Origin: a virus
Virus record (IMG/VR): IMGVR_UViG_3300028920_000037
Coordinates: 76,496 to 140,495 of that record
Direction: 5' to 3' (one strand)
DNA: 64,000 nucleotides
A program made the position numbers and the translations under genes. Below, in pieces: positions 7,958-63,913 of this stretch; within the stretch, counting starts at the first letter, position 1, and the number at the start of each line of letters is the position of its first letter. The notes beneath the pieces are model-generated. The model was not told where the DNA came from. It did no database searches and worked only from the letters and a program-made list of their open reading frames with translations.

Positions 7958-8335
7958 ATGAGGACGACCCTCAGCCAGGTTAGGAGTATCATCAGAGAGG
8001 AATTGGCCCGCCATCTTAATGAGGAATGGTGGGCTGAGTCATATTCTGGTAAGCTGTACGATGAGCCCGCGCTTGATCCAGAAAAAGAGACGCTCTGGAT
8101 CGAAAAGGATTCGAAGCGCAAGATCAAGAAGTGGATGAAGGACATGGGCCTCGCCGAGGCTGTGTCCAACAGAGACATCCTCGCAAGGCTTCAAAACCTG
8201 AGTGATAGCAATGTTGAGTACATAAAGGATCCCTTGAGCTATAGGGCCGGATCGCTCAGGTTCAACGAGCTCGAATACATCACGAGTAACGCTGATCCTA
8301 CTACGATCGCGTTGAAACAACACCCATCTGCCTAA
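7958..8335 (+). CDS. Hypothetical protein with leader 'VRSIIREEL..LNEE'
   Basis: TACTTA at 7946-7951, ATG 7958. Confidence 0.7.
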   Translation: MRTTLSQVRSIIREELARHLNEEWWAESYSGKLYDEPALDPEKETLWIEKDSKRKIKKWMKDMGLAEAVSNRDILARLQNLSDSNVEYIKDPLSYRAGSLRFNELEYITSNADPTTIALKQHPSA

Positions 8336-8632
8336 ACGTTTGGGCAGGCGATGATGAGTTGAAGTTTTATCTGAACGACGGTCGCCACCGCTGGTTGCCT
8401 GCACGGATGTACGGTGCGTCAAAGATACGTGCGGATGTCACGATCGACTATAGTGAGAATGATTCGATGCCGGTCGGTGTAATGACGATCGGAATTGCTT
8501 CCGATGATCTAGGACGATTGATCAAGATCGCAGACAAGGTCTACAGAAAGGACCGCGAAAGACCTCCCGATCGCTCTTTGAGGTTCAATTGAGCGCTCGC
8601 CCGAGTCGTTATACTTATAGCGAGGAGTCCTC

Positions 8633-9787
8633 ATGAAGTTGAAGCTGCAACAGCTGCGTGCCGTGGCACGCAGCACCTTGGTAGAAGTCAAGGCAACCGA
8701 GGCGCTGCGTAACGCTATGCCGAAGGTTTTTGGTCCTGCTATGCGCGTAGATGGTGACCTCAAGGTGCTCGCTCGTAGGGTAAACGAGCGCCTCGATGTC
8801 ATGGAGCGTACAGGAAACACCGCGATCATTGAGATTGCTACGGCGGTGCTTGCGCCGCTCGCAAGGAACCGATCAGCAGAAGTACGCAAGATGGTTGCAA
8901 GGCTTCTACCCAAGAACCTTACGACGAAGCTGTGTGAGGACAGGCATCCAGCTGTTAGGGCAGCAGTAGCTCGTAGGGTTCCATACGATGCGCTTTGTAA
9001 GATGTGTGAGAGGTTTCCAAACGACGACCAGCTGACAACCATCAAGGCAGAGCGCATCGACGAGGTGCTTGAACCCGTTGAAGAGCTTGATTCAAAAGCA
9101 ATAGGTGAGACAGTCATGACGAACGTCAGCGAGTTGTCGAAGCAGTGGTACATGGAGGCTGCGCGCAAGCTCCTTGAGGACTACGGCGAGTTTACGAGGA
9201 CTCCGGTACTCGCCGAACGTCACTGGAACCCGAAGGCGGTCGCTCGGTACTGTGCGAGCCTGAAGGCCTCGTGGGGCGTCGAGATCGATGCAAAGAAGCT
9301 TCAGGAGGCGGTCGATATGCTGCTTAGGGAGCTCGACGATCGCAGGGAGAATCAGTATGGAAACTCGCTGTCAGAGATCAAGAAGAACCTCGAACGTCTC
9401 GTTGAAAGTGACGACCGCGGCAAGCTTCCGATCATGCCAATCGTTGCTGAAGAGCGGACAGATCCGGTCAAGTCGTTGCTCGAGAACAGGTGCACGAACG
9501 CTGAGTACTTGAAGTTCTTTGAGTCAATGTTCAATGTTCGCAAGTCAACGATTCCAGCGACGATCAGGAAGTACAGACTCGGCGAAGGAATGTCAAAGGA
9601 GACGTTCGTTCCGATGAAGGCGCAGCTTCCACACGGTGTTTTGAATGAGGTGACTGAACAGGCGCTCAACAGGTACGTTGAGTGTTGGAACGCGGCGGTT
9701 GCGCTCGCTGGTGAGCCACTGAAGCTTGGTTGGAACATTGATCCGGCGAACATTGCGTCGGTCGGATTTGACCTGGAGCTCTTCTGA
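8633..9787 (+). CDS. Hypothetical protein with HEAT/LRV-like repeats and shared leader
   Basis: 'SAEVRKMVAR', 'DRHPAVRAAVARR'; TACTTA 8612-8617; SD gaggag. Confidence 0.75.
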   Translation: MKLKLQQLRAVARSTLVEVKATEALRNAMPKVFGPAMRVDGDLKVLARRVNERLDVMERTGNTAIIEIATAVLAPLARNRSAEVRKMVARLLPKNLTTKLCEDRHPAVRAAVARRVPYDALCKMCERFPNDDQLTTIKAERIDEVLEPVEELDSKAIGETVMTNVSELSKQWYMEAARKLLEDYGEFTRTPVLAERHWNPKAVARYCASLKASWGVEIDAKKLQEAVDMLLRELDDRRENQYGNSLSEIKKNLERLVESDDRGKLPIMPIVAEERTDPVKSLLENRCTNAEYLKFFESMFNVRKSTIPATIRKYRLGEGMSKETFVPMKAQLPHGVLNEVTEQALNRYVECWNAAVALAGEPLKLGWNIDPANIASVGFDLELF

Positions 9788-10341
9788 TGAGCAAAAAGAA
9801 CATTCTAGAATCGCTCGAAGCGCAGATCATGATTCCGCCCGATGCTGACGCAAAGCTTCAGAGCCTGCTGCAGCACTGGGAAAGCACGTACTACGGAGCG
9901 CTGTCTGTCCTGCTTGCAAACCTTCGCTTCCTTGCGCTCCTTCATCAGTTTCATCACTGGACGGTTTCCGGTAGCTCGTACTACGGTGACCATCTGCTGT
10001 TTCAACGCCTCTATGAGGGCGTCACTGAAGAGATTGACAGCCTTGCAGAAAGGGCAATCGGCCTGGGTTCAGAGTGCAACGTTGACCTCAGGATGCAGTT
10101 TGATACGATCTACGCGTTCATCAAGGACTACAGCATGGCTGGGGTCACGTACGCTCGTGACGGAGACCTTGCATACAAGTCACTCGATGCAGAGTACAAC
10201 TTCCTCCGTGTTGCTCAGGTAATCAGAGAGTATCTCGATGCGAACGGCATGCTGACAGGTGGCCTTGAGGACCTACTTCCTGCGATCGAAGGTAAGCACG
10301 AGGAACACATCTATCTTCTGAAACAAAGGGTTGGTGGATGA
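9787..10341 (+). CDS. dps: Dps-like ferritin family protein
   Basis: HWTVSG...HLLFQRLYE...EIDSLAER ferroxidase motif. Confidence 0.85.
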   Translation: MSKKNILESLEAQIMIPPDADAKLQSLLQHWESTYYGALSVLLANLRFLALLHQFHHWTVSGSSYYGDHLLFQRLYEGVTEEIDSLAERAIGLGSECNVDLRMQFDTIYAFIKDYSMAGVTYARDGDLAYKSLDAEYNFLRVAQVIREYLDANGMLTGGLEDLLPAIEGKHEEHIYLLKQRVGG

Positions 10342-10834: not shown

Positions 10835-10859
10835 ACAGCGTGTGCTCGTAGCATAGAAT
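10831..10859 (+). promoter_or_regulatory. Sigma70-like promoter, leaderless
   Basis: TTGAAC-17 nt-TAGAAT, then 6 nt to ATG 10866. Confidence 0.7.
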
Positions 10860-10865
10860 CGGTCT

Positions 10866-12500: not shown

Positions 12501-12920
12501 TCAAGCATGGACATAGTAGGACACGTGGACCGTCACCCCAGCGAGAGCGTAGGAGGATTCAGCTTCTGACATATTAGGAATGTGTCCCTCTGCGAGCAAG
12601 CGGAAGCCCAGGTCGATCCCGCGGAGGCGCGACGCACTCCCAGGAACCATCTTGACCTTGCAGATTGAGACGACATCGAGTTCCAAGAGCGCGTCGCTCG
12701 CCACCTGGCAGGTTGGATGTTGAGGGTCGAGCCAGTGTTGCGCAGCCTCTTCAACCAACTCAGCGGTATCAGGCCGCCGGTCGAGCAACAATTCATAATC
12801 ACGCGGCGTGTACTGAATCACAGCGTCGGTTTCGTTGAGTTGGTGGTCAGCGGCGAGTATCTTTCGCTTTGATCTCTTAGAGAGCCTGTTCGCCGCGTAC
12901 AGGATTTTAAGCATGGTCAA
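12501..12920 (-). CDS. Hypothetical protein
   Basis: Only sizeable ORF in the gap; TACAAT just upstream on the - strand. Confidence 0.55.
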   Translation of the reverse strand: MTMLKILYAANRLSKRSKRKILAADHQLNETDAVIQYTPRDYELLLDRRPDTAELVEEAAQHWLDPQHPTCQVASDALLELDVVSICKVKMVPGSASRLRGIDLGFRLLAEGHIPNMSEAESSYALAGVTVHVSYYVHA

Positions 12921-12936
12921 TTGTAGGCCTTACGCA

Positions 12937-12965
12937 GTGTAGCTGCACCTCACGTATGGTAGTGT
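12937..12965 (+). promoter_or_regulatory. Sigma70-like promoter, leaderless
   Basis: GTGTAG-17 nt-TAGTGT, then 6 nt to ATG 12972. Confidence 0.5.
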
Positions 12966-12971
12966 TGTTGC

Positions 12972-13175
12972 ATGGTCTATGAATACAAGTGTGCATCTTG
13001 TGGGAAGATGCACGAGATCGAACATGCAATCAGCGAAGAACCTCGAACAGTGTGTCCTGCGTGTGGTAAAGATTCACTTAGGAGGCAGATCAGTGGAGCA
13101 CCCAGGTTTATCCTGAAGGGTCGTGGGTGGGCGTCAGACGGATATTCTTTGCCAGAAAAGGTGTCCTCTGACTGA
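12972..13175 (+). CDS. FmdB-family zinc-ribbon protein
   Basis: YEYKCASCG...CPACG...LKGRGW. Confidence 0.88.
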   Translation: MVYEYKCASCGKMHEIEHAISEEPRTVCPACGKDSLRRQISGAPRFILKGRGWASDGYSLPEKVSSD

Positions 13176-13213
13176 TCGAACTACAGCCCTGTGGCTGCAT
13201 AGAGGAACGCTCA

Positions 13214-23632: not shown

Positions 23633-23878
23633 ATGGCAGACAAGAAGATCGTTAGGCTGACAGAAGGTCAGCTTCGCAACATCATCCGCAAGGTCCTCAA
23701 TGAGGACATCGTACAGTCGAACGACATCATTGACACGATCGATACGATCGAGGATACTGATACGCTCGTTGCAATCAACGACAAGATCAAAGCGAGGTAT
23801 GGGTACCTCATGCGCCTCTCACGTTCGCAGCGCCAAACGTCTCGCAAGCCTCCCCCTCCGCCTCAAAGGCGACGTTGA
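23633..23878 (+). CDS. Small protein with leader 'LTEGQLRNIIRKVLNE'
   Basis: TACTTA at 23619-23624. Confidence 0.72.
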   Translation: MADKKIVRLTEGQLRNIIRKVLNEDIVQSNDIIDTIDTIEDTDTLVAINDKIKARYGYLMRLSRSQRQTSRKPPPPPQRRR

Positions 23879-24177
23879 GCAGGCGGACACGTCAGCACCT
23901 GCTTGACTTCCTGGCGTTTGGACTACCAGGAGTTTTACTCCTGGGTCTGGATGGATACCTTTGGGTTGCGACGAACGCCGATGTCAACGGTCTTGTTGGG
24001 ACGCTCATCTGTTCTTTGGCGTCCATTGGCATCTACTGCCTTGTTCTGCGTCACAGTTTGCAGTGGCGCATATTTAGGCATCATGCAGACAACGATCGGA
24101 AAGATCAGAGGGCTCGTCAGAAAGACGCTGATACTGACAGAGATGAGAGGTCCAACAGGAAACCTCCGCCGCGTTAG
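23875..24177 (+). CDS. Possible small 2-TM membrane protein
   Basis: Two hydrophobic segments and a charged tail; overlaps the next gene by 95 nt. Confidence 0.35.
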   Translation: MSRRTRQHLLDFLAFGLPGVLLLGLDGYLWVATNADVNGLVGTLICSLASIGIYCLVLRHSLQWRIFRHHADNDRKDQRARQKDADTDRDERSNRKPPPR

Positions 24178-24472
24178 GAGCGGCGGCCAGCGGCACAAGA
24201 TCGGAAAGATTGAAGATGAGAACAGGGAGGTTTCGTTCGCTGAAGCCGAGATGTTGTTTCCAGGTTCGACGAACGCATGGGCAGAGATCGTTCCAGAGCT
24301 GTTCCCACAGTTCCCGTTTGACGATCCGTTCTCCATTAAGAGGAATTCCGTTTTCTTCAAGGAAGGAGACGGGTTAACGGTCGCGTTTGCTGACCACCCA
24401 CAGTTCAATCTCGCTACGTGGGATCCAACCAGAGAAGATTGGATCGAAAACGAGCTCGCCGGCACGGGCTGA
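24083..24472 (+). CDS. Hypothetical protein with leader 'IRGLVRKTLILTE'
   Basis: TATTTA at 24071-24076. Confidence 0.7.
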   Translation: MQTTIGKIRGLVRKTLILTEMRGPTGNLRRVRSGGQRHKIGKIEDENREVSFAEAEMLFPGSTNAWAEIVPELFPQFPFDDPFSIKRNSVFFKEGDGLTVAFADHPQFNLATWDPTREDWIENELAGTG

Positions 24473-31431: not shown

Positions 31432-32013
31432 ATGACATGCATCATTGGGCTTGAGTGCGACGGCGAGGTCTACGTTGGAACCGACAGTGCGTTGAGTGAC
31501 ACATGGACGATCTCGTCACTTGCGGCTCGTGAGAAGGTTTTCGTCAAGCACGACATGATCTTCGGAGTCTGTGGCTCGATGAGGTTGGCGCAGCTGCTAC
31601 ACCACGCCTTGGAGGTTCCAGAGCACGAGGAAGAAAAGGATGTCATGTCATACCTTGTTGTTGACTTTGTCGACTCTCTGAGGGAGATGCTCAAGGACAA
31701 GGGAACTCTGTACACGTCGGATGATGAAGGCAAAGTTGAGTACCTGCCGAACTCAGCGTTCATCCTTGGATACGGTGGCAAGGTCTATGTCGTTGATGAG
31801 GACATGCAGGTGTCTCGTTCGGTCGGTGGGTTCATGTGCGAAGGCTCGGGCAAGGAGGTCGCAACCGGAGCGATGCAGGTCCTAAAGGACAGGCACGACC
31901 TCACGCCCGAGGATAAGATCAGAAAGGCGCTCGAGGCGAGTGCCCTTCACACGTGCTATGTCCAAGGACCCTTCCATGTCATGAAACTGTCGGACGATGA
32001 CGATGACGACTGA
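31432..32013 (+). CDS. Ntn-hydrolase (HslV/proteasome beta-like) peptidase
   Basis: N-terminal Thr (MTCIIG), GTDS, KVF, EGSG.EVA.GA. Confidence 0.8.
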   Translation: MTCIIGLECDGEVYVGTDSALSDTWTISSLAAREKVFVKHDMIFGVCGSMRLAQLLHHALEVPEHEEEKDVMSYLVVDFVDSLREMLKDKGTLYTSDDEGKVEYLPNSAFILGYGGKVYVVDEDMQVSRSVGGFMCEGSGKEVATGAMQVLKDRHDLTPEDKIRKALEASALHTCYVQGPFHVMKLSDDDDDD

Positions 32014-32281
32014 TATTTGTGGCGTTTGTGGAGCCTTGCTGTTACGAAACAGTGGCTACAGTCTACCTTCGGACGAGATGTGTAGGGCGTCAGGGAAAAG
32101 GGGCGGTGAGCTGAAGATCTGCGCTGACGGATCGATCAAGATCTGGCACTATGGGCTACGTAAGTGGGTCGAGACCGAACCTTGCGGCACGTACGGATGC
32201 GCAAGGTTGAAGGTAAACGACCTTCTGTCGGTCGTGCATCAAAGAATACCTGGAAGATCCAGATGCATTCAAGTGAGATGA
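31997..32281 (+). CDS. Hypothetical Cys-rich protein
   Basis: Fills the gap. Confidence 0.4.
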   Translation: MTMTTDICGVCGALLLRNSGYSLPSDEMCRASGKRGGELKICADGSIKIWHYGLRKWVETEPCGTYGCARLKVNDLLSVVHQRIPGRSRCIQVR

Positions 32282-32282
32282 G

Positions 32283-32852
32283 ATGAATCCTGAGTTCATA
32301 ATTTATTGTGGCCCAATGTTTTCGACGAAGACCACTTCAATGTTCTTACGTCTAGAACGCTTTGAGCTCCAACATAGAGCCACACGGCTCTTCAAACCGA
32401 TCGGCGATGAACGGTATAGCACCGACGAGGTCGTTACGCACTCTGGCTGGAAACGTCCGGCAACAAGGGTCTCTAAGGGCCTTGACATCCTGAAGCAGAT
32501 CGAAGAGGACCCGCCGAGCATTGTTGCAGTCGATGAGGCGTTTATGATACAGGACGTCTACAAGGTCCTCCCGTGGTTGTTCAAGAACGGTGTGACGATT
32601 GTCGTCGCTAGTCTTGATCTTGCGTTCAACGGAAAGTCGTTCAAGGAGGTCGAAAAGATGCTGCCGTGGGCGACAGAGGTACACAAGTGTCCTGCGGTAT
32701 GTACTGTCTGTGGCGCAAATGCGTTTTATACGCATAGAAAGACGTCTGACGATGAAGACATCATCGTAGGGGGCGCTGAGATGTACGAACCTAGATGTTT
32801 TTCTCATCACCCTGTTATAAATGAGGGATTTGGAAATGTTTCTTCGCGTTGA
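32283..32852 (+). CDS. tdk: Thymidine kinase
   Basis: GPMFSTKTT, VDEAF, SLDL.F, CTVCG, GGAEMYEPRC. Confidence 0.93.
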   Translation: MNPEFIIYCGPMFSTKTTSMFLRLERFELQHRATRLFKPIGDERYSTDEVVTHSGWKRPATRVSKGLDILKQIEEDPPSIVAVDEAFMIQDVYKVLPWLFKNGVTIVVASLDLAFNGKSFKEVEKMLPWATEVHKCPAVCTVCGANAFYTHRKTSDDEDIIVGGAEMYEPRCFSHHPVINEGFGNVSSR

Positions 32853-34074
32853 AAAGAATGGTCGCAAAAAGAAGCATATTATCAAATGCGATAACTGTGG
32901 TATCGAAGTTGAACGTTACGCCGCACATGCAAAAGGCAATGTTCACTTTTGCTCTAGAAGATGTAGCAATGCGGCAAAACGAGCGTCGATTCTCGTAACA
33001 AAAGCGTGTGAAACTTGCGGAAAAGAATTTATAAGGATCCCATCACTTTCTGGTCGCTATTGTTCCAAATCATGCGCAATAAAGTCACGATACGTCAACA
33101 AGTCAACTTGGACAAAGGTTGCTTGTGACACGTGTGGGAAAACAATCGAAAAACGTAAGATCCACGTTGGCCAACGTTCATACTGTTCACGAGAGTGTTT
33201 GAGTATTGGGCATGCTAAGACTCACTCTTCACATAACGTTCGATGTAACAAGGCAAAGGGTATAAAACGTGGAATCTATTTAACACTTGATGGTCGTTCG
33301 ATCAAGTATGATTCTTCGTATGAACTTCGTCGTATGCGAGAATACGACTACATCATCGATGATGAACTTGAATCATGGGAACGATGTGATCTAATCGTAC
33401 CTTACATCGATGTGAACGGCAAAAAGAGAAGTTATAATCCAGATTTTTTGCTTCGATACACTGATGGTTCTGTTGTTATCGAAGAAGTTAAGGGGCGTTT
33501 AACAGACAATGATGTTTTGAAATTCAACGCGTTGATTTCGTATTGTGCACATCAAGGAGATAACGTACAGGCTAGGATGTTTTCAAATCCAGATTTTGAT
33601 GATATTGAGGTCAAAACAAGCGTGTACAAAAACGATTACGGTGTGTTTTCTAGGCCGACATTAGAGTACATCTTTATAAAGATGGCGCTTCTTCTCGCAG
33701 AACGTTCAACATGCCTTCGAAAGAAGGTAGGTGTTGTGTTTACAGATTCAGAGATGCGTCATGCGTACTGCGTTGGTTATAACGGAGATGAAAAGGGTGG
33801 CAAAAATCAATGTGAATCCCTTGATCCCGGGAAGTGTAACTGCATACACGCAGAAATTAACGCATTGACGAAGAATAATATTGACATTACAGGATGTACG
33901 TGTTTTGTCACCCTGGCACCATGTCCGGTTTGTGCTAAGGTTTTGATTAATCGTGGCGTCAAAAAAGTGATTTATCACGAAGCATATAGAAATTCGAGAG
34001 GATTACAACTGCTTCATCAGCGTGGTGTTGAAGTCGTAAAGTATGCTTCTTTAGAAACAACGTCTGGTTCCTAG
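32836..34074 (+). CDS. Fusion: Zn-finger repeats + TnsA-like PD-(D/E)xK endonuclease + dCMP deaminase
   Basis: Three CxxCG..(F/Y)CSxxC repeats; DSSYE..Y..YNPDF..EEVKG; RPT..RSTC..VG..GYNG..HAE.NA..PCPVC. Confidence 0.88.
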   Translation: MFLRVEKNGRKKKHIIKCDNCGIEVERYAAHAKGNVHFCSRRCSNAAKRASILVTKACETCGKEFIRIPSLSGRYCSKSCAIKSRYVNKSTWTKVACDTCGKTIEKRKIHVGQRSYCSRECLSIGHAKTHSSHNVRCNKAKGIKRGIYLTLDGRSIKYDSSYELRRMREYDYIIDDELESWERCDLIVPYIDVNGKKRSYNPDFLLRYTDGSVVIEEVKGRLTDNDVLKFNALISYCAHQGDNVQARMFSNPDFDDIEVKTSVYKNDYGVFSRPTLEYIFIKMALLLAERSTCLRKKVGVVFTDSEMRHAYCVGYNGDEKGGKNQCESLDPGKCNCIHAEINALTKNNIDITGCTCFVTLAPCPVCAKVLINRGVKKVIYHEAYRNSRGLQLLHQRGVEVVKYASLETTSGS

Positions 34075-34089
34075 TAGGTAAGTACTTCT

Positions 34090-34410
34090 ATGCAACTAGA
34101 TGAGGGTGTTGTCATCAGGATCATCCGCGAGGAGTATTCTCAACAGGTCGCTGAGGCGCTGAACGCTATCAAGTCTGTTTCCGGTGAGGACAAGAACGTC
34201 CTTGACGCGGGCCTGAAGCTCAAGCTAAAGAAGAACGATACAGAACGGAAGCTTCCGAAGGGCACGCTGTATACCATCAAGTCGGTCGGAAACGACGGGG
34301 TCGTTGTCATTCGTATTAAGTCTGACGAGGAACCCGAGGTCGACTCATACGAGGCAAAGGAACGAGTAGTTTCATACGAAGACCTCGAACGTGACTTTGA
34401 ACTCGACTGA
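34090..34410 (+). CDS. Hypothetical protein with leader 'IRIIREE'
   Basis: ORF with shared leader. Confidence 0.65.
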   Translation: MQLDEGVVIRIIREEYSQQVAEALNAIKSVSGEDKNVLDAGLKLKLKKNDTERKLPKGTLYTIKSVGNDGVVVIRIKSDEEPEVDSYEAKERVVSYEDLERDFELD

Positions 34411-34431
34411 CGCGCTATTTAAGGTGAGGAC

Positions 34432-35157
34432 ATGGGCAAGAAAAAAAACGATGAACGTCCTGTCGTGAGCATCAGTGACAACAAACTGAGGCAGTTCGTT
34501 AAGGACGCGGTATCCAAGCACGGAAACCTGAGTCCATTGGAGGAAGCGTACGTCTCTGAACCAAAGCCATTCAAGCAGGTTACAGACATGGTTTCTCAAC
34601 GAACCAAGGACGGGCACCAGGAACTCTATAAGGGGTACGTTGACGCGTTGAACAGGACAGTCGCCGAGCTTGAGGCGATCGAAACGACCGGTGCAAACGC
34701 GATGCATTCCGAATATAGGTCCGCTCGCCTTGATGAAACGTATAACCTGAACGCAAAGTGGCTGCATGAACTTTACTTTGCGAACTGCTTTGACCCGAAT
34801 AGCAACGTCTATATGGACTCTCAGGCGTTTATCAGGTTATCGCGCGACTTCGGAAACTTCGAACGTTGGCAGAAGGATTTCATCGCGTGTGCTCTAAGCG
34901 CCGGCGAAGGCTGGGCAGTCTGCGGCTACAACATGCACTTGAGGCGTTACACCAACACGTTCATCAGCCACCATTCTGGTGATGTGATGCTTGGGATGTT
35001 CCCGATCGTCGTCCTCGACATGTGGTCGCATGCGTATCATAAGGACTACGTCATCGACAGGCAGAGCTACATTGTTGCAATGATGCGAGAGCTGAATTGG
35101 AATGTCATTGAGGACAGGATCGGTGTGGCCGAAAAGATCGCAGGAGTATTGAAGTGA
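34432..35157 (+). CDS. sod: Fe/Mn superoxide dismutase-like protein with N-terminal extension
   Basis: H..LY.GYV, LHELYF, DFG.FE.W, GWAV, LDMWSHAY..DY; TATTTA 34416-34421. Confidence 0.85.
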   Translation: MGKKKNDERPVVSISDNKLRQFVKDAVSKHGNLSPLEEAYVSEPKPFKQVTDMVSQRTKDGHQELYKGYVDALNRTVAELEAIETTGANAMHSEYRSARLDETYNLNAKWLHELYFANCFDPNSNVYMDSQAFIRLSRDFGNFERWQKDFIACALSAGEGWAVCGYNMHLRRYTNTFISHHSGDVMLGMFPIVVLDMWSHAYHKDYVIDRQSYIVAMMRELNWNVIEDRIGVAEKIAGVLK

Positions 35158-35795
35158 AGACACTGAGCTTTGTAAAGCAGTACCTCAAGGACATGGTCCT
35201 CAAGGACATGGTCCTCAAAGAAGCTGATGAGGGTGACGATGCCGTAACAGCTCCTGAACCTCCATCGACTGTTGAAGGCAACGATTCTCTCGATGTCCAG
35301 GTCGATGGTTACCTTTCAGGGTACGAACAGGAAGCAGCTGAGATGGCTGCTACGGCCGAGGACCCCGGATCGCAGCTTGAGCACGTCGATTTCAGGCAAA
35401 TGACGCGTGAGTTCCTGTTTGAGGCACCTGAGGACGAACAACCCGACGCCGCCGAACAGCAGGACGAAGAAGAACCAACGGGTGATGAGGAAGGCGACAC
35501 CCATGTCGCTCCACCCGAGCCTCAAAAAAAGACACTCGGTGAAATCGACGTGCGAACATACGCTGAAAGCGTCTCACGGCTCATTGAGAACATCAACAGC
35601 TTGATCGAGGTCAGGAATACTGTTCTGCGCCGAGCGATCAATCACCTCGGAAAGACGTACGACGAATCTGTGCAGGGGCAGCTTGAGATCGTACTTGAAG
35701 AGGAATTTGGACTTGCAGTAGGCAAGTCACAGAAGGACCTCGAGGACGAAATTCAAGCCCCTCCAGCGGCGAACGCAGGCCCGTTGGGAGGGTGA
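35154..35795 (+). CDS. Acidic hypothetical protein (head-internal/scaffold-like)
   Basis: E/D/P-rich; LKEA and LFEA sites. Confidence 0.65.
   Translation: MKTLSFVKQYLKDMVLKDMVLKEADEGDDAVTAPEPPSTVEGNDSLDVQVDGYLSGYEQEAAEMAATAEDPGSQLEHVDFRQMTREFLFEAPEDEQPDAAEQQDEEEPTGDEEGDTHVAPPEPQKKTLGEIDVRTYAESVSRLIENINSLIEVRNTVLRRAINHLGKTYDESVQGQLEIVLEEEFGLAVGKSQKDLEDEIQAPPAANAGPLGG
35183..35218. repeat. 15-bp in-frame tandem repeat
   Basis: cctcaaggacatggt x2 plus cctcaa (LKDMV LKDMV LK). Confidence 0.9.
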
Positions 35796-35799
35796 CAAA

Positions 35800-36108
35800 T
35801 TGCGAACCGATCTTTTTCAAGATCGAAAGTGCGTGCATGTAAAGCTCGAGAAGGAAACACACGCAGCGTTTCGTACGAGGTTGTTCACACATAACCTGAG
35901 CATGCAGGAAGTGTTTGACGCCTTTGCAAAGCTTGTTGTCGGTGGGGACAGCAGGGCGACAAGGATAATCGAAGACATCGTCGTCAAGAAGGTCGAAGCG
36001 CAGGTCAACGGAAAGATCAAGAGGCGACGTAAAAAGAACCATGTCTCTGAAAATGACAGGGACGTGCTGTATAACATGATAGAAGGGCAGGGACAATGCC
36101 AGGTTTGA
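35800..36108 (+). CDS. Possible ribbon-helix-helix DNA-binding protein
   Basis: 'VHVKLEKETHAAFR...LSMQEVF'. Confidence 0.5.
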   Translation: MRTDLFQDRKCVHVKLEKETHAAFRTRLFTHNLSMQEVFDAFAKLVVGGDSRATRIIEDIVVKKVEAQVNGKIKRRRKKNHVSENDRDVLYNMIEGQGQCQV

Positions 36109-36410
36109 TGGACAGGGCGAAATCGCTGGTTGAAGGAGCACGAAATAGAGTCGAGGTTGCTACCTTTCATGTGCTGAGGCACGTTCCAGGGTTTCGCGCC
36201 ATCTACGTCGACATCATGCGTCTTGCATACGGCGTGCAGTCGACGACTCAAGCTATCCAACACAATCACGCAATGATGGTGCGCCTCTTCAAGGAGGTTG
36301 CCGAGGCTCGAGATATGACGCAGCTCGTCCTGCGCAAGCTAGACGATGTATCGACAGACACCTCATTGCCACAGCTCTCCTCTGACAAGGTCGAGGATAA
36401 ACCGAATTGA
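36096..36410 (+). CDS. Hypothetical protein
   Basis: Coupled ORF. Confidence 0.55.
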   Translation: MPGLMDRAKSLVEGARNRVEVATFHVLRHVPGFRAIYVDIMRLAYGVQSTTQAIQHNHAMMVRLFKEVAEARDMTQLVLRKLDDVSTDTSLPQLSSDKVEDKPN

Positions 36411-36814
36411 GGTGTCTTATGCTACTTTGGTGGAAGAAGTTTTGGGTTGACGCCAAGAAGTACTGGCAGTTGATTGCGCTTGGGTTGGGTCTCGTCGTCA
36501 CGATGCTTTTGCTACGCACTCAGCGTACGAACTTTGCTGATAGGCTTAAGGAGATCAACGACGCCCACAAGGACGAGGTCGACCGGATCAACACCATCCG
36601 TGACACCGAACGCAAAAGGTACGAAGAGAATAGGGTCGAGCTCGAAAAGAAGCTGACAAGCATCAAACGCCAGTACGAAAAGAGGATCGCCGAGCTCGAC
36701 GTGAAGACGCAGCAACGTGCTGAACAGATCCTCAAAGAAAACGAATCAGATCCAGACAGGCTTGCTGCAAAACTGTCGCAGGTACTTGGGTTCGAGATCG
36801 AAACAGGAGGTTGA
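36407..36814 (+). CDS. Putative inner-membrane spanin-like protein
   Basis: Single N-terminal TM followed by a long coiled coil. Confidence 0.55.
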   Translation: MRCLMLLWWKKFWVDAKKYWQLIALGLGLVVTMLLLRTQRTNFADRLKEINDAHKDEVDRINTIRDTERKRYEENRVELEKKLTSIKRQYEKRIAELDVKTQQRAEQILKENESDPDRLAAKLSQVLGFEIETGG

Positions 36815-36815
36815 A

Positions 36816-37289
36816 GTGAAGAAGTTTATCGCTGCTGTACTGATTGCGTTGACGTTGCTGTCACCTGCGACGGCATTCGCCGATCCACCCGTCCAACCAC
36901 CGGGAAAGATCGCCCCACTACATGAAACAGACCCCGCACCGTTCGACGGCGTGTTGTTTTCTGCAGAAGCTGTGGCGTGGGTCGCCGCACAGTCAGAATC
37001 ATTTGAGGAACGCGTTCAGATCGAACGTCAGGATGCGACCGCTCAGGCCACAGCACACTGCGACCGCAGGATCGCTGATGCTGATGCCAGATCTGAGGCG
37101 GACCGCGCAACGATGCAGGCGCAGCTGGACGCCCAACAGGCCCGACTCGAGACGATGGAACGGGCGCTTCGAGACGAAGAAAAGAAGCGCAAACCCGGTA
37201 CGATTGCGCTCTGGACATCACTTGGCACCGGCGGAGGTATCCTACTTACGCTGGGAACCATCTTTCTGGTAAACCAGGCGACCAAGTGA
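36816..37289 (+). CDS. Exported coiled-coil protein with C-terminal TM (spanin-partner-like)
   Basis: SD aggagg, signal peptide ..PATAFA, coiled coil, C-terminal hydrophobic helix. Confidence 0.6.
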   Translation: MKKFIAAVLIALTLLSPATAFADPPVQPPGKIAPLHETDPAPFDGVLFSAEAVAWVAAQSESFEERVQIERQDATAQATAHCDRRIADADARSEADRATMQAQLDAQQARLETMERALRDEEKKRKPGTIALWTSLGTGGGILLTLGTIFLVNQATK

Positions 37290-37322
37290 GCCAGTGCTGC
37301 CTATTTAGACCTGAGGCAGCAC

Positions 37323-37643
37323 ATGTCTGAAGAAACAAAAGAAGAGACGGCAGTCGTTCCTGCCGACGAAGTAAAAGTGCCAGACACCTGGTTCTGGATC
37401 CGTGACAGCAAGGGCTACGGCTCGGTTACAGTCACGTTCGTCACGATCGCGTTCTGGGTTACGACCCTCGCATACGTGGCGTCGATCTTTTCGAAGATCG
37501 GGCCCGTTGAGATCAGGCCTTTCGATGTCGCTGCGTGCAGCGCGTACTTCATCCCAATTTTGACCCTATACTTCGGTCGCAAGTTCACTGAAGCGAAGTG
37601 GGGACACGGTCCAGGGCCAGGGAGCACCAACAAGGCAGAGTGA
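37323..37643 (+). CDS. 2-TM holin-like membrane protein
   Basis: Two TM helices, LYFGRK; TATTTA at 37302-37307. Confidence 0.55.
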   Translation: MSEETKEETAVVPADEVKVPDTWFWIRDSKGYGSVTVTFVTIAFWVTTLAYVASIFSKIGPVEIRPFDVAACSAYFIPILTLYFGRKFTEAKWGHGPGPGSTNKAE

Positions 37644-38731
37644 TGCACGGGATCACGGTCACTGAGGGTGCGATCAGAAAACTCGTCAGGAAGGCGCTTA
37701 ATGGAACACAACGGCTTGCTGAGATGGGTGGACTACAACCTCAGGAACCAGTCAGGGTCGTCAATGTTGTCGACCCTCAGGCTGCAGAAACAGACCCAAA
37801 GAATCCGAGGTACCTTCCTCAAGATAAGGTAGAATTTACTGTAGCGATACGCCAGCTCCTGGATGCAAACCCAGAGGCTGACTACCAAGAGATTTTCCGA
37901 ATCGTCAAGATGAAGCTCGACGACGATGAGGGCGGAGGAGAAACAATGAACGTCAAGGAACAGGTGGAGGCAGCTCTTCGCAGGAAGGTTCGAGCTGTCA
38001 TCAAGGAGGCGATGCCGGCGTACGCGCGAGGCGGCCAGTACGGTCAGGAAGACTTCGAACGCGACAAGGCGTGGTTGCAGCGTAAGTTTGGAGAAGAGGA
38101 AGAGCCTGAAGGCAAGGACAACTACACGCCGAAACGTGTCCGCGGAAGCAAAAATAACGACGAACAAGCGTCACAGATCATTCGGGTGCTGAACTCTGAG
38201 TTCGGCATCGATATGAAGGGTTCGCAGTTCCAGTCGTTCGACAAAGCAACGAAGCTTCGTTGGTTTGCGACTGCGTACATCTCGGAACACGATCCTCGGT
38301 TCCTGGAACGCACAGTCGCCGACTACATCGAAGCGCTCGAAGAGGCCGCGGATGAGTCGGGCGTCCTAGACGATACACTCATCGAGGAATTGAAGGACCT
38401 TGAGAGGGAACTGCTGAAGAATCCGTCGATCTCTGATGCGTTCTCAGAGTACCTCCAACAAGAGGTCCAGACGACGATCAACTCGATGGATCCAGAGCAG
38501 TACAAGACGTTCATGGGTCTAGCACAGCTCGCGTTCGACGATGTACCAGGCGGCATCATGAAGTTTGGTGCCGGCGGCGCTGAGAAGCCAGAGGATGTAC
38601 GTACCTGGGCAGCTCGTCGTCAATCGAGCAAGCAGTTCACAGGAGGCGGAGATCCGAAGACCGGTGGCGGAAGCGCAGTTGACAGATTCAGAGCGGCCGT
38701 TGATCATCCGGCGGTCCCACCAGAGAAGTAG
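37643..38731 (+). CDS. Hypothetical protein with two copies of the shared leader motif
   Basis: 'TEGAIRKLVRKAL..LAE' and internal 'LRRKVRAVIKEA'. Confidence 0.7.
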   Translation: MHGITVTEGAIRKLVRKALNGTQRLAEMGGLQPQEPVRVVNVVDPQAAETDPKNPRYLPQDKVEFTVAIRQLLDANPEADYQEIFRIVKMKLDDDEGGGETMNVKEQVEAALRRKVRAVIKEAMPAYARGGQYGQEDFERDKAWLQRKFGEEEEPEGKDNYTPKRVRGSKNNDEQASQIIRVLNSEFGIDMKGSQFQSFDKATKLRWFATAYISEHDPRFLERTVADYIEALEEAADESGVLDDTLIEELKDLERELLKNPSISDAFSEYLQQEVQTTINSMDPEQYKTFMGLAQLAFDDVPGGIMKFGAGGAEKPEDVRTWAARRQSSKQFTGGGDPKTGGGSAVDRFRAAVDHPAVPPEK

Positions 38732-39182: not shown

Positions 39183-39609
39183 AGTTAGGCCTGATGCCGA
39201 TTCGTCGCTCCTCATGTCGCAGGAACTGTACGACGAGATCGACCTAGAGGATGGAGCGAAGGAGCTCATCCAGGCGCGGTCGAAGATCATCGTCCTGAAG
39301 ATCAAGACGAAGGACGGCAAGAACGACCTTGTTCTTGCTCCACTTCGTGGTATGGGGTCCGCAATCGAGGACGAGCTGCTTACGCTCGAGCTCGAGCTTC
39401 CAGAGGCCCAGGCTCTCGAGTTCCTCCTTGACATTCGTAGCGGTGGGACAGGTATTTACGGGATCGACATGCACTGGCGTCAGGATGTTGTCACGATCCT
39501 TAAGGAGAGCGACGAACGCTACAGTATACAGAAGGTGAACATCTACGATGTCTCTGTAGAATCAGAGGCATCTACGTTGGTCATCGTGCTCAATGATGCG
39601 TTTCATTGA
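39169..39609 (+). CDS. Hypothetical protein
   Basis: Coupled ORF. Confidence 0.6.
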   Translation: MNRSEVRPDADSSLLMSQELYDEIDLEDGAKELIQARSKIIVLKIKTKDGKNDLVLAPLRGMGSAIEDELLTLELELPEAQALEFLLDIRSGGTGIYGIDMHWRQDVVTILKESDERYSIQKVNIYDVSVESEASTLVIVLNDAFH

Positions 39610-39640
39610 AGGTCGGCCTATTTAGAGATCACGGGTCATC

Positions 39641-39841
39641 ATGTTAGAAGAAGGTACACAGTTTGATAAGTTCATGGACGATATCCTCATAAAAGAGGCT
39701 CGTCAGGTCAAGCGCGATGCAAAGGAAGAGGAACTACCTCTACATGTCAGAGCAAACGGTCTTCGTCGCGAGAATCCAGGTCACCTGATCAGGTACGGTG
39801 GAACATTCTCCAGGCATCCTGGGATCAGGTACAGAGGGTGA
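39641..39841 (+). CDS. Small hypothetical protein
   Basis: TATTTA at 39619-39624. Confidence 0.6.
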   Translation: MLEEGTQFDKFMDDILIKEARQVKRDAKEEELPLHVRANGLRRENPGHLIRYGGTFSRHPGIRYRG

Positions 39842-45481: not shown

Positions 45482-45763
45482 ATGGTTGAGCGCGACACAC
45501 GAGTTGATGAAGAGATTATCGATGCAATGAATTTATTTTGCGGTTACGCCCCCTTCGTCAACTCGTGGATCGACGTCAAAAAGAACCTGCTGTTGTTGCT
45601 GCCGCCGAAGAAACGTTCGTTGTTCTCACGCAGGGACGAGAAAACAAAGCAGCAGATTCCCAACGCGATGGAATATGAACTGATGCAGATGTGGGCCGAC
45701 CTCACGGGTCGTCCGGTCATATTTACCAATGATGGACAACATGGACAGATCGATCCTACGTGA
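45482..45763 (+). CDS. Hypothetical protein
   Basis: Divergent from the previous gene. Confidence 0.5.
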   Translation: MVERDTRVDEEIIDAMNLFCGYAPFVNSWIDVKKNLLLLLPPKKRSLFSRRDEKTKQQIPNAMEYELMQMWADLTGRPVIFTNDGQHGQIDPT

Positions 45764-46895
45764 GTACGTCCGTTCTGTCATCGTTGAGGACGGTGACGGC
45801 GGTGGAGCCGGTGACGGCTTCGGCGGCTGGGGAGGCATGGGCGGTTACGGCGGTGGAATGGGAGGCATGGGCGGAGGTTTTGGCATCGGTGATGACGTCA
45901 TCTATAGGACGTTTGTCGCTGGGTGGGTTGACCTCTTCAAGACTGCTACGTCTGCAACGAAATCGGTCCTCGGCTCAGCGTATGCCACTGCACGAGTTGT
46001 CTTTGATTCAATCGCATCATCTGTGATCCCTTTCTACAGATCGAGGTACAAGGCGATCGCTGAACAACACCGCGAGACGCAAGAACAAATCAGGAACGAA
46101 CACCATGCGGCGTATAGCTCGATCACGAGCGCCCTCGTCAGCAACGATGACTTCCTGGTCAGTGCATTCATGTTCGATCCGGCGAGGTTCTTTAAGACTG
46201 CGTTGTCGAACCCATCGGCGTTCGTTACAGCAGTAGGCGTAGCAAACGCACCTGACGCGATCGCAAATACGTTTGACGTCCTGTCGGGTGGTGGGATGCT
46301 CGGCAGGATTATCAAGCGTGCCCACGCTGAGAAGTCGGATTGGGAGTCGATTCAAGACAAGCTCAAGCATGTCCTTGGTGAAAAGACGCTTAGGGGCATG
46401 TTCGGAGAGTCAACCGGCAGGCGAGTGAATCCAAGCCAGTTTATCATCGTTGAAGAAGACGCTCCGCGAAAGCGCGACAAGGAACCCGAAAAGGGGCAAA
46501 ACCTTGAAGAGGACCAACTCGACGTCATCAAAATCCTGCTCGATCCAGCGGTGATCGACATGGTCATGCAGGGTCGTGAGGCTGAAGCGATGTCAAGGGA
46601 CATGCGCAAGGCAACAGAGAAGTTCCTTAAAAAGATCGTTGAAACCGTGGAGCAGTCACGGCAGATCAGGTCCCTCGATGATGTCCAAAAGATCACCGGC
46701 AAGCCGATCAAGGGTGACGAAGACTTGACGCCTGAGGTTGAGGAACGCATGGTTCAAGAGACGAAGAAATCGATCAAGAAGATGTACGCTGAGATGCTTG
46801 CTGCGGAGGCGAAACATGTCGCGAAAGTGCTCGATCCTGATCACGATATGGTGAAGGCATACAAGGTGGCGCTCAAGGCGATACACGACGCGTGA
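45729..46895 (+). CDS. Gly-rich protein with leader 'LREYVRSVIVE'
   Basis: TATTTA at 45720-45725; GGxGG tract. Confidence 0.75.
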   Translation: MMDNMDRSILREYVRSVIVEDGDGGGAGDGFGGWGGMGGYGGGMGGMGGGFGIGDDVIYRTFVAGWVDLFKTATSATKSVLGSAYATARVVFDSIASSVIPFYRSRYKAIAEQHRETQEQIRNEHHAAYSSITSALVSNDDFLVSAFMFDPARFFKTALSNPSAFVTAVGVANAPDAIANTFDVLSGGGMLGRIIKRAHAEKSDWESIQDKLKHVLGEKTLRGMFGESTGRRVNPSQFIIVEEDAPRKRDKEPEKGQNLEEDQLDVIKILLDPAVIDMVMQGREAEAMSRDMRKATEKFLKKIVETVEQSRQIRSLDDVQKITGKPIKGDEDLTPEVEERMVQETKKSIKKMYAEMLAAEAKHVAKVLDPDHDMVKAYKVALKAIHDA

Positions 46896-46913: not shown

Positions 46914-47207
46914 ATGGCTAGAGTGGCTAAGAAGGCTCCGAAGCAGTACAACATCGCGAACCTCCAACCCGATGAGATCAACGACCTGCGTCGTGTGGTG
47001 CGTGAGTACGCGCAACGCAAACAGAACATTTTAAACGAGATTGAAACTCTCAAGGAGGACCTCAAGACGCTGGACCAGGAGTTCGCCGAGAAGCTCGACC
47101 TGAAGACGTTAAAGCTTGTCGAACGACACCTCAACGTGATGCAAGGCGTTGCTCACAAGGATACCTTCGATCTTTTTGTTGAGGCATTGGAGGATCAAAT
47201 ATGCTAA
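46914..47207 (+). CDS. GapR/T4 DsbA-like dsDNA-binding protein
   Basis: 'LRRVV.....I..EIE.LKED.K.L..E....LD.KTLK'; TG-TAGGAT then 6 nt to ATG. Confidence 0.6.
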   Translation: MARVAKKAPKQYNIANLQPDEINDLRRVVREYAQRKQNILNEIETLKEDLKTLDQEFAEKLDLKTLKLVERHLNVMQGVAHKDTFDLFVEALEDQIC

Positions 47208-54891: not shown

Positions 54892-55662
54892 ATGTCCATC
54901 AAGCCGAAACTAGATTCCTGGCTGCTTGATCCAGAACCGAGCAGCATGCACCCAGCGTATGAGGACAAGGCGGCCGGTGTCGTCATTGTTGAAGGAAGTT
55001 CAACCGAGGTTGACCTTCGAAAGTTCGCCTCGCCCGTCGAAGACCAGCGTTGGCTGAACTCGTGCGTCGGCAACGCCGTGGTCGGAGGCCTTGAGCTTCT
55101 GCGGCTCGCCTCTGGTCACGATCACGTTGACCTTTCAAGGTTGTTCGTCTACTACAATGCTCGCAATGAGCACAGCGCGCAGACACTCGACAAGGGTACA
55201 TACATTCGCTCTGCGATGCTGACGCTTCAGAAGCTTGGCGTTTGTAAGGAAGAAACCTGGGCGTACAACATGAACAAGGTCTTCGTCAGGCCATCGTGGA
55301 ATTCGTATAGGGAGGCGTACCTCAACAAGATCGATGACTACTACAGGATCAGGTCGTATGGATCGAGCAGGCTCGATGCCATCGAGACAGCGCTTCGCGC
55401 TCGGCATCCGGTTGCGTTCGGTATGAAGGTCGATGATAAGTTTGTCGAGAACAGAGACGGTCATCCGAAGTTCACTTCGTCGAGCAAGTGGGAAGGTCGT
55501 CACGCGATGTTGATTGTTGGGTTCAATAAAACATCAAAAACCTTGATCGTTAGGAATTCGTGGGGCACAAGTTGGGGTGACGACGGCTACTGCTACCTTC
55601 CGTACGACGCGCTCCAGGCAGCCGAGAGCGATGATTTTTGGGTGATGACGGGACTCTCGTGA
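54892..55662 (+). CDS. Papain-like C1 cysteine peptidase
   Basis: VDLR..PVEDQ..NSCVGNA, LSRLFVYY, RHAM.IVG, RNSWG..WG..GY; TACTTA 54878-54883. Confidence 0.93.
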   Translation: MSIKPKLDSWLLDPEPSSMHPAYEDKAAGVVIVEGSSTEVDLRKFASPVEDQRWLNSCVGNAVVGGLELLRLASGHDHVDLSRLFVYYNARNEHSAQTLDKGTYIRSAMLTLQKLGVCKEETWAYNMNKVFVRPSWNSYREAYLNKIDDYYRIRSYGSSRLDAIETALRARHPVAFGMKVDDKFVENRDGHPKFTSSSKWEGRHAMLIVGFNKTSKTLIVRNSWGTSWGDDGYCYLPYDALQAAESDDFWVMTGLS

Positions 55663-57429: not shown

Positions 57430-57438
57430 CTTTGTATC

Positions 57439-61197: not shown

Positions 61198-61300
61198 AGT
61201 CCCTGAACGTTGACAGCTAGACAAGGTGCAACAAGCGTCCTCTTAAGATACGATATAACCGCTAAGAGGGCATTTGTTGCCTTTTACGCAAAAGGAAACC

Positions 61301-61926: not shown

Positions 61927-62320
61927 CGTCACAAGCGTAACGCCTGTCGAAGAAAAAAGACTGCTACGATACAGTGAAATCATCGAGCCTGGAACGATGG
62001 TGAGGTGGTGGCTCGATTTCTTTAAGAAGACGTGTGGGATGGCCATTGCCCAGTCAGAACGTGGTATCACGGTTATCTGGGCTTGTCCACCTTCAAAGGA
62101 CGTCGAAATACTAACTCCGAGTGCTTTTGCTAACCTTAATGGCTATGATTCACACAGCGCTGGTGTTCCTAAAAGAAGCTTCAGAAAAGCTGATTTTGGT
62201 GACACCATTGATAACGAATACGACTTCAAGATGAAGATCATGAAGAAGCGAACCATTACTTCGCCGTTCAATATCTTCATAGATGATGGGGCACGTGCAC
62301 TTTACACCAGCACGACGTAG
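61907..62320 (+). CDS. Hypothetical protein
   Basis: PGTMV..GMAI..VIW, resembles the previous ORF. Confidence 0.5.
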   Translation: MIRTYSDVTSVTPVEEKRLLRYSEIIEPGTMVRWWLDFFKKTCGMAIAQSERGITVIWACPPSKDVEILTPSAFANLNGYDSHSAGVPKRSFRKADFGDTIDNEYDFKMKIMKKRTITSPFNIFIDDGARALYTSTT

Positions 62321-62332
62321 AACGTCTACGGC

Positions 62333-62902
62333 ATGAGGTTTCCGCTACCACGCCAGAGGATCGTTGCCATCGTTGATCGTTCGGGGTCGATGCGACCGAT
62401 CGCTGAAGAAGTCGTTGCGGCACACAACGAGTTCATCACTTCTCAACGCCATACAGCGCCGGGTGGTTTGACGCGAGTGCTGTTCAGCAGCATGTGCGAA
62501 GTTGATGCGATTGACGTTGATATCAATGATAAATGTGCGTTGCTTGATATCGACGCGTATGCCCCCAGTGGAAAGACAGCGCTCTTTGACGCGATCGGTG
62601 TCGGCATTGAGTTAGGTTCTCGAGCAAACGAACCCGTCATCGTGTTCGTTGTCACCGATGGGTTCGATAACATGTCAAAGACCTACGGGAGGAACAGCCT
62701 GAAGGCACTCATTGATGAATGCAAGGAAGCAGGCTGGAAGTTCTTCTTCATGGGTGGAGGGGATGTAGACGCCCAGCGCGACCAGGCCCGAGAAATTGGG
62801 ATCGACGATTACGAGGGATTTGAGATGAACGCTGGATCGCTCAGGTCCGCAAGTAGGACGATTTCGGAGAGGATCTCCGCTGCGCGATCAGGCTCCGAAT
62901 AG
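62333..62902 (+). CDS. VWA domain protein
   Basis: MIDAS DRSGSM, TALFDA, VTDG. Confidence 0.9.
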   Translation: MRFPLPRQRIVAIVDRSGSMRPIAEEVVAAHNEFITSQRHTAPGGLTRVLFSSMCEVDAIDVDINDKCALLDIDAYAPSGKTALFDAIGVGIELGSRANEPVIVFVVTDGFDNMSKTYGRNSLKALIDECKEAGWKFFFMGGGDVDAQRDQAREIGIDDYEGFEMNAGSLRSASRTISERISAARSGSE

Positions 62903-63913
62903 GCCGACGTCTGAGATGACGAGTTCGCCCGTATCGGGACGTACCATGATGTTCGATTCGTGCAGGTCGTGCCACTCGAACTCGTACGTCTCTTCGAGGT
63001 ACTCGAGCGTGCGTACAAGCGACTGGACGTTTCTATCATCGATAAACGACTTTGCAAGTTGCGGGTTGTCGCCGTAGCGCCTCGACGTCGGGAAGATGCG
63101 ACCTAACACAATGTTCAGCAACATGCCCTTTAGGATGTGGGAGAACTCGTTCCAGTCAAAGTCATCGTCTATGAACGCTCCTGCTTCGCTACCTGCGTGC
63201 TTTACGTTCGTTGAGACATAGAAGTCAACGATGTTGGAGATCTCGTCCGGCTTCGTACCCGGTTCGTAGAGCTCGTCGGCTATCGTTAGATCGTCTATCG
63301 TAGACACAACAACGTTCCTGACGAACGGGCTAAGGGCTTCGTCTGCGTGCATCGAGGATAACACGCCCTTTGTCAACTTATTTAGCAGGCTCGAGTTCTT
63401 CGTAAGTCCAGACATCCTCTTTTGGGTGATGTCCGCCCTTGTGTCCTTGCTTTTTGATTTCCACAACGAGCTGGCGACGTTCCTCGGGACCGGGATGAGG
63501 TACTCAACAAGCACACATCTGTTGAACTCCTTGTTGTATACGTCCCCAGCTTCACGTGTTGTTTTTTCATCAACATTGAAGATTTCGAATATCGTAGGAA
63601 GGTGACGCCCGTAGACACGCGGCACGTGTTGTTTGATCTCCATCGCCTTTGTGTAAATCGGCGATTCGTTCGTTGGAATGAACTTTGCAACATGCCTCTT
63701 TCCGCGCCAAACAACCTCGTACGCTCGGGCGGCGATACCCTTGCCAAGGAACGAGTCTTTTTCTCCTGATGGAATCGGCACGATATCGTGCGAAATGAGC
63801 CAGTGCACGAGCGGATCGTCCGATCCTTCGGCCCACTGCCGCAACATGTCGACGTTGCCCTTCTCCTCGAGAAGCACTGAGAGGATGTAGTGGCGTACGA
63901 GGCTGTTGTCCAT
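62888..63913 (-). CDS. Protein kinase-like (Hanks-fold) protein with shared leader
   Basis: LGKGIAARAY, VAK, VEY, HDLHESN, SDVG; ATG 63913 behind TAGTTA (63922-63927). Confidence 0.82.
   Translation of the reverse strand: MDNSLVRHYILSVLLEEKGNVDMLRQWAEGSDDPLVHWLISHDIVPIPSGEKDSFLGKGIAARAYEVVWRGKRHVAKFIPTNESPIYTKAMEIKQHVPRVYGRHLPTIFEIFNVDEKTTREAGDVYNKEFNRCVLVEYLIPVPRNVASSLWKSKSKDTRADITQKRMSGLTKNSSLLNKLTKGVLSSMHADEALSPFVRNVVVSTIDDLTIADELYEPGTKPDEISNIVDFYVSTNVKHAGSEAGAFIDDDFDWNEFSHILKGMLLNIVLGRIFPTSRRYGDNPQLAKSFIDDRNVQSLVRTLEYLEETYEFEWHDLHESNIMVRPDTGELVISDVGLFGA

Follow-up and report, generated by a model that had tools for sequence, protein, structure and literature searches.

The window analysed here is a stretch of 64,000 nucleotides at the very end of an IMG/VR viral contig of 140,495 bp (IMGVR_UViG_3300028920_000037; CheckV completeness 39%), whose source is an uncultured giant T4-related phage. 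We describe a helical leader, or tag, that stands at or near the N-terminus of otherwise unrelated proteins of this phage, among them an Fe/Mn superoxide dismutase (SOD) and a Nudix hydrolase, and that is a candidate capsid-targeting signal. A sequence-only reading of the window had listed twelve such leaders, among them the internal copy at about 37988; every one is present where it was placed, at the start codon or no more than about 20 residues from it, and the leader at 63913 lies on the minus strand. The tagged proteins of the window and two further ones of the contig are given below, in window coordinates unless marked as genome coordinates. ATAYTTA is a promoter-like element considered in a later section.

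7958..8335 (+): 125-aa protein of no known family, without Pfam or PHROG match; leader ..LSQVRSIIREELARHLNE; ATAYTTA 6 nt before the ATG
8633..9787 (+): 384-aa protein with weak HEAT/LRV-like repeats; leader MKLKLQQLRAVARSTLVE
23633..23878 (+): 81-aa protein; leader ..LTEGQLRNIIRKVLNE, then an acidic stretch; ATAYTTA 8 nt upstream
24083..24472 (+): 129-aa protein; leader MQTTIGKIRGLVRKTLILTE; ATAYTTA 6 nt upstream
34090..34410 (+): 106-aa protein; variant leader VIRIIREE, one residue shorter and below the threshold of the hidden Markov model (HMM)
34432..35157 (+): Fe/Mn SOD with a 38-residue leader; tag helix at residues 16-29
35154..35795 (+): 213-aa protein; leader ..FVKQYLKDMVLKDMVLKE, then an acidic linker
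37643..38731 (+): 362-aa protein; leader ..TEGAIRKLVRKALNGTQRLAE; internal second tag-like copy at about 37988
45729..46895 (+): 388-aa protein; type-B leader ..SILREYVRSVIVE, then a Gly-rich linker; ATAYTTA 3 nt before the ATG
46914..47207 (+): 97-aa coiled-coil-like protein, a doubtful member; weak tag-like LRRVVREY at residue 25, low HMM scores
56686..57246 (+): Nudix hydrolase (Pfam NUDIX); type-B leader MKFLRQYIRTLICE
62888..63913 (-): 341-aa orphan with kinase-like motifs; leader MDNSLVRHYILSVLLEE
Genome 39314-39670: 118-aa open reading frame (ORF) with two leaders in tandem, a variant ..LDAKQLGALVTGIVKEE at the N-terminus and a canonical MTEANLRRIVREELTE from residue 36
Genome 12513-13154 (-): 213-aa protein; type-B leader MSSLLERYVRVLVAE; near-match of the promoter element upstream, CATATGTAAATGC

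Apart from the SOD, the Nudix hydrolase and the kinase-like protein, the tagged proteins belong to no Pfam or PHROG family; for six of them, PHROGs yielded no family. Nearly all genes of the contig lie on one strand, and the gene at genome 12513-13154 is one of the few on the minus strand. The replication and nucleotide enzymes of the window (DnaE, PNKP, a thymidylate-synthase homologue, dCMP deaminase and an AAA ATPase) carry no leader, in agreement with the sequence-only reading.

The leader and its spread among related phages

The consensus of the leader is M-(K/R)-(I/L)-(T/K)-x-x-x-L-R-x-(I/L)-(I/V)-(R/K)-E-x-(L/V)-x-E. Its helix is hydrophobic at positions -1, +2, +3 and +7, with Arg or Lys at 0 and +4 and Glu at +5. 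A type-B form, LLR(E/Q)Y(I/V)(R/Q)(E/S)V(L/I), occurs on the Nudix hydrolase, the 45729 protein and the kinase-like protein. For the Leu and Arg residues of the motif, 4 to 6 synonymous codons are used; therefore, selection acts on the peptide and not on the DNA.

The leader is concentrated at N-termini. In the 140-kb contig, on which 194 ORFs were called, the pattern h-[RK]-x-h-h-[RK]-x-x-h gave 14 matches within the first 45 residues and 9 elsewhere (binomial P = 1.5e-5). Enrichment was also found against shuffled sequence, since 2000 shuffles of the same N-termini yielded 1.9±1.4 matches, with a maximum of 9, against the 14 observed. An HMM built from nine of the sites listed by the sequence-only reading added three N-terminal sites outside the window (genome 3034, 39422 and 59363). 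In G001, an independent genome, the best 12 HMM matches were all N-terminal. G001 is a 309-kb relative contig, 91% complete, and one of more than 576 IMG/VR contigs that encode a related capsid protein. The iterated profile placed the leader on about 14 proteins of the present contig and about 30 of G001.

The proposal of a modular tag on unrelated proteins holds for this enlarged set. When the leaders were removed, 39 tagged proteins fell into 34 similarity groups, and the links among the leaderless proteins were confined to cross-genome orthologues and one link to a 1019-aa G001 protein. Two members of the list call for comment. G001 has a gene with a leader like that of the 34090 protein, MKTLTEADVLRIMREE, placed after ATAYTTA, and its orthology to 34090 is assumed. 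The doubtful 46914 protein is conserved in G001 at 53% identity.

The same proteins recur on a 331-kb contig, and the leader extends well beyond near relatives. The best 80 loci of the contigs with a related capsid protein (59-79% identity) were kept for comparison, and in these loci the leader stands on many ORFs of the capsid-gene neighbourhoods. The nearest GenBank records, which are far more distant, are Microcystis phage Mel-JY01, the uncultured 484-kb phage LR756508, Flavobacterium phage immuto and Rhodothermus phage RM378. In LR756508, which was sampled over 80 kb, the leader is found on 23 small ORFs around the head module; the guanine-plus-cytosine (GC) content there is 40%, compared with about 51% in the present contig, and the leader is conserved across genomes of 40% to 55% GC. 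The cultured phage immuto carries three leaders, MKKSQLREIIRKE, MKKSQLRQIIKEA and MKKSQIVKAVQEVLEE, on gp176, gp190 and gp198, the last of which lies in the head module. The leader profile had no match in RM378 or the Rak2-like phage CBB. Among GenBank phages, two of the tagged cargo proteins had no homologues and the SOD had distant matches only. Membership of the source phage in the huge-phage clade marked by bS21 (PMC9723584) was considered and rejected, since the S21 gene is absent from both the contig and G001.

Predicted cut sites and tagged enzymes

The sequence-only reading held that the leader ends in (L/I)-x-E, the recognition sequence after which the T4 prohead protease gp21 cleaves (PMC9026906). 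This was largely borne out: [LIVM]-x-E lies within 24 residues of the anchor Arg in 34 of the 39 leaders, and the Glu is invariant in the SOD family. It did not hold throughout, as Glu is present in only 58% of the family of the 8633 protein.

The SOD family provides the strongest evidence for the proposed proteolytic removal of the leader. The enzyme itself is identified by Pfam Sod_Fe_C (PF02777, 2.6e-19), with Sod_Fe_N (PF00081, 0.0012) below the cut-off. All 120 of the best SOD homologues, on which the junction statistics are based, bear an N-terminal extension of 24-137 residues, in which the helix and spacer are freely variable. In contrast to this variability, the junction has L, V, I, M or F at P3 in 119/120, Glu at P1 in 120/120 and Ala or Ser at P1' in 120/120, with 13 residue types at P2. 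In the present SOD, the predicted cut falls after Glu38 (window 34543-34545), before AYV, so that the product would begin at about the start of ordinary SODs, by a rough extrapolation from the Pfam match. In the AlphaFold (AF2) model (predicted local distance difference test, pLDDT, 88.8), the leader helix (residues 16-29) is separate from the fold and is followed by a coil that contains Glu38 and Ala39.

Similar sites recur in the other tagged proteins. The G001 orthologues retain TLAE in the 8633 protein, L-R-E followed by A in the 35154 protein and VLKE followed by G in the 45729 protein. The 37643 protein has an internal copy, ..RRKVRAVIKE followed by A, about 115 residues in, and its 483-aa G001 orthologue likewise has an N-terminal and an internal copy, the internal one ending in LTE and then A. 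This protein may consist of two parts and be cleaved at two sites. The major capsid protein has (V/L/I)(L/I)(K/R)E followed by S or A in all 45 displayed of 77 aligned relatives, about 30 residues before a conserved VRR motif; this is where T4 gp23 is cut, at LTE|AEIGG, 36 residues before VRR. A resemblance by eye between the tag and the capsid-protein N-terminus, MK.FTLDQLAQGIRE, was dropped, as the tag HMM gave no more than 1.7 bits.

The domains of the SOD and the Nudix hydrolase begin about 40-60 residues into the proteins. The Nudix assignment was confirmed by PF00293 (2.1e-20, residues 60-146). LLRxYIxEVL is present in 42 of 67 Nudix homologues, and (I/L/V)-x-E in 40 of those 42. Most orthologues have a type-B leader and some a type-A leader; in that of G001, an unrelated domain stands at the N-terminus. 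Such apparent exchange of leaders between orthologues is the behaviour of a swappable module. Between leader and catalytic domain, the family also shares a conserved Gly-rich spacer, GFGNK..GKDGVAGN.., followed by an acidic run.

The protein at 63913 had been called a kinase, and this identification is tentative. By eye, a Gly-rich loop with VAK can be seen in GKGIAARAY..VAK, along with the motifs HDLHESN and DVG; Pfam and PDB searches gave no match. A single-sequence fold had a pLDDT of 38 and was unusable, and the protein matched only itself among 5.8 billion proteins. A language-model lead points the same way as the motifs, in that kinases are represented among the members of its ESM Atlas neighbours (Pkinase, 12%; T7 kinase, 10%).

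Head module and the ATAYTTA element

The contig encodes a T4-type head module, in which tagged proteins are also found. Its genes, together with the tail sheath genes, are as follows, in genome coordinates.

1529-2182: prohead protease, Peptidase_S77, gp21-like (PF03420, 94.6 bits, E 3.7e-28)
2432-3037: peptide deformylase, outside the window (Pfam 2e-35)
3034-3483 and 3562-3861: small tagged head-module proteins, between the protease and scaffold genes
4549-6435: scaffold-like protein, 628 aa, acidic, just upstream of the capsid gene
6463-8355: major capsid protein, gp23-like
31866-34931 and 35198-38200: two tail sheath paralogues in tandem, about 1000 residues each

Two motifs of the protease, GELDHP and GISSRGVGS, hold its catalytic His and Ser and can be aligned with T4 gp21. 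Of all leaders, those on the two small proteins of the head module are the best conserved; these proteins carry the leader in 39 and 21 of the related loci. The leader thus marks proteins encoded beside the protease, which suggests that the tag is native to the prohead core. The peptide deformylase gene is placed within the head module, between the protease and a tagged core protein. G001, too, has two tail sheath paralogues.

A conserved helix of the scaffold-like protein, at residues 34-49 and reading TPRIRDLIEKELL in relatives, resembles the tag by eye: its hydrophobic spacing is the same, but its charges are swapped at +4 and +5 (E-K, not R-E). This helix is a possible docking partner of the tag. 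When scaffold-like residues 1-240 (alignment of 41 rows) were co-folded with the tag (alignment of 28 rows), without controls, the score was 0.00, which is evidence neither way.

ATAYTTA occurs in 12 copies on the coding strand of the contig and 1 on the other strand, and in 25 and 6 copies, respectively, in G001. Its positions in the contig are as follows.

Window 7945..7951, 8611, 23618, 24070 and 45719 (+): before tagged genes
Window 54877 and genome 17631, 20440, 31825, 42902 and 59352: further copies

The distance to the start codon is 3-38 nt and usually 3-8 nt before the ATG; therefore, several genes would have almost no leader RNA. The element precedes a tail sheath gene in the contig, and scaffold, tail tube, baseplate wedge and head-tail adaptor genes in G001. 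In the present genome it lies upstream of 5/11 tagged and 5/183 untagged ORFs (P = 5e-5). ATAYTTA is a candidate late promoter of the clade. The T4 element TATAAATA had 0 copies on the coding strand of the contig and 1 on the other strand. ATAYTTA also lies upstream of an untagged 256-aa peptidase-like protein (window 54892-55662; PHROG 16701, 5e-15).

Proposed capsid targeting and its alternatives

The shared helix is probably a T4-type capsid-targeting leader, longer and much more widely used than that of T4. Every test that could be run from the sequences agrees with the earlier proposal of a modular leader that a prohead protease of the T4 type would process; the Glu content of the 8633 family and the acidity of the tagged proteins weaken it. 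From the genes we infer core binding, cutting, virion residence and delivery. The tagged proteins would be made late in infection, together with the head proteins, and the amphipathic helix would dock them onto the assembling scaffold core, which would include the two small conserved helix-bearing proteins encoded beside the protease gene. The gp21-type prohead protease would then cut after the terminal hydrophobic-x-Glu of the leader or of its spacer, so that the mature protein is freed inside the head, and at least some of the cargo (the SOD, the Nudix hydrolase and the kinase-like protein) may enter the host with the DNA. A broader proposal concerns the whole clade, represented by hundreds of contigs. 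One 17-residue helix would act as a general capsid-loading code carried by core proteins, and enzymes that acquire it would be co-assembled, clipped to their native N-terminus and injected, as a changeable kit of 20-30 proteins. We advance this extension only tentatively, as a possibility that falls somewhat short of even chances.

A cut site in the leaders is supported by the presence of Glu at +6 to +12 in 59% of them, compared with 12% of N-termini that lack the tag and 11% of positions inside proteins; this support is partly circular because the HMM that defines the tag set includes Glu at +9. Several observations weigh against capsid targeting followed by cleavage. In the 8633 family, where nearly all of 192 representative homologues begin with the same leader, P1 is Glu in 67/116 and Asp in 15/116. 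Asp at the cut position stops cleavage but not targeting in T4 (PMC9026906). Because Glu retention in this family is 58% and Asp blocks T4 cutting, some leaders may stay attached. Without their leaders, the tagged proteins have a median of -3 charges per 100 residues and are thus acidic, where the internal proteins of T4 are basic; therefore, many of them may be expelled core components and not injected cargo. The tag HMM had no match to T4 gp67, gp68, gp21, gp22 or the gp23 N-terminus. The leader is unrelated in sequence to the T4 head-core proteins tested, and its length is about 17 residues, compared with 10 in T4 (PMC9026906). The link to ATAYTTA is weak in G001 (3/20 tagged vs 18/430 untagged, P = 0.06). 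Finally, the presence of the tagged proteins in the virion is itself only inferred.

The acidity of the remainders bears on the first alternative, in which the leader takes proteins into the prohead core, where most of them act as accessory core or scaffold proteins that are degraded and expelled like T4 gp67, gp68 and gp22. T4 core proteins are indeed cleaved to fragments that exit the head (PMC9026906). The strongest and best conserved leaders stand on the two head-module proteins beside the protease, and two thirds of the tagged proteins have 170 residues or fewer, no known domains and an acidic composition. However, the SOD, the Nudix hydrolase and the kinase-like protein are enzymes without an evident scaffold role, and the single invariant site of the SOD, at the natural N-terminus of the enzyme, fits intact release and not degradation. 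We regard this explanation as unlikely when it is set in place of cargo loading. It is nevertheless quite possible that most of the small tagged proteins have an expelled-core role as a variant of the same mechanism.

In a second alternative, the helix would serve interaction or localisation in general and have nothing to do with the capsid; it could bind membranes or dock onto another assembly or chaperone, and the Glu would merely belong to the helix pattern. The helical segment is strongly amphipathic, with a mean hydrophobic moment of 0.48 compared with 0.26 in the same window of other N-termini, and in the 8633 family the helix, which lies at the very N-terminus, is better conserved than the Glu. 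However, amphipathicity alone is not distinctive, as ordinary N-termini, taken at the best of 20 windows, come close to this moment (0.45). This alternative also leaves unexplained the invariant hydrophobic-x-Glu and Ala/Ser that follow a variable spacer in the SOD family, the head-module carriers and the promoter element shared with structural genes. We consider it improbable. It is scarcely credible that a modifying enzyme recognises the leader, in the manner of ribosomally synthesised and post-translationally modified peptides: one N-terminal sequence on many unrelated small proteins is the pattern of a leader peptide, but the tag also stands on large enzymes, and a radical-SAM domain was not found in the contig, 91%-complete G001 or LR756508.

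Capsid targeting thus remains our preferred reading, and its principle is that of textbook T4. In both systems a short N-terminal leader is carried by unrelated proteins, ends in hydrophobic-x-Glu, is associated with a protease of the gp21 family and serves as a modular address; in T4, the first 10 residues of IPIII suffice for head incorporation (PMC9026906). What is new here is the longer leader and its far wider use. Compared with T4, the present leader often has a spacer before the cut site and also marks conserved core proteins, and it is found on roughly 20-30 proteins per genome, where T4 has a handful. The putative cargo includes SOD and Nudix proteins and is mostly acidic. Our literature search found no description of this leader, of its clade-wide use or of SOD or Nudix proteins as cargo.

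Other systems share parts of this design. The giant phages phiKZ, 201phi2-1 and SPN3US also package many proteins with the DNA and have a diverged gp21 homologue, gp175/gp245, that cuts propeptides of inner-body or ejection proteins and cleaves many head proteins after the Glu of a short motif (PMC9026906; PMC5694885, PMC7411985). The capsid protein of the present clade is of the T4 type, and phiKZ is not among its relatives. Encapsulin cargo-loading peptides are alike in that a short terminal peptide sends diverse enzymes into an HK97-fold shell. They usually stand at the C-terminus, however, and are not known to be cleaved off by a protease, and the compartment is cellular, with no known delivery to another cell. 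For the SOD, a parallel is provided by the chlorovirus PBCV-1, in which a late-expressed Cu/Zn SOD is present in the particle and is believed to reduce superoxide during early infection (PMC7019647). PBCV-1 is a eukaryotic virus and its enzyme is of the Cu/Zn type, compared with Fe/Mn here; a targeting leader is not mentioned in the portion of that source used here.

If the proposal is correct, it would have both practical and biological consequences. The cultured phage immuto, with its three leaders, makes the idea testable at the bench. For loading foreign proteins into phage heads, the leader would add a second, unrelated tag; it would also be a portable delivery signal. The proposal would further point to a phage particle that carries an Fe/Mn SOD. 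It would offer a route to the host-takeover and anti-defence proteins of the first minute of infection in metagenomic phage genomes. About 5-7% of giant-phage genes would encode capsid cargo, mostly of unknown function, that can be recognised from sequence alone. Protein injection by T4-type phages would then not be a curiosity confined to three internal proteins but a large system that is able to evolve.

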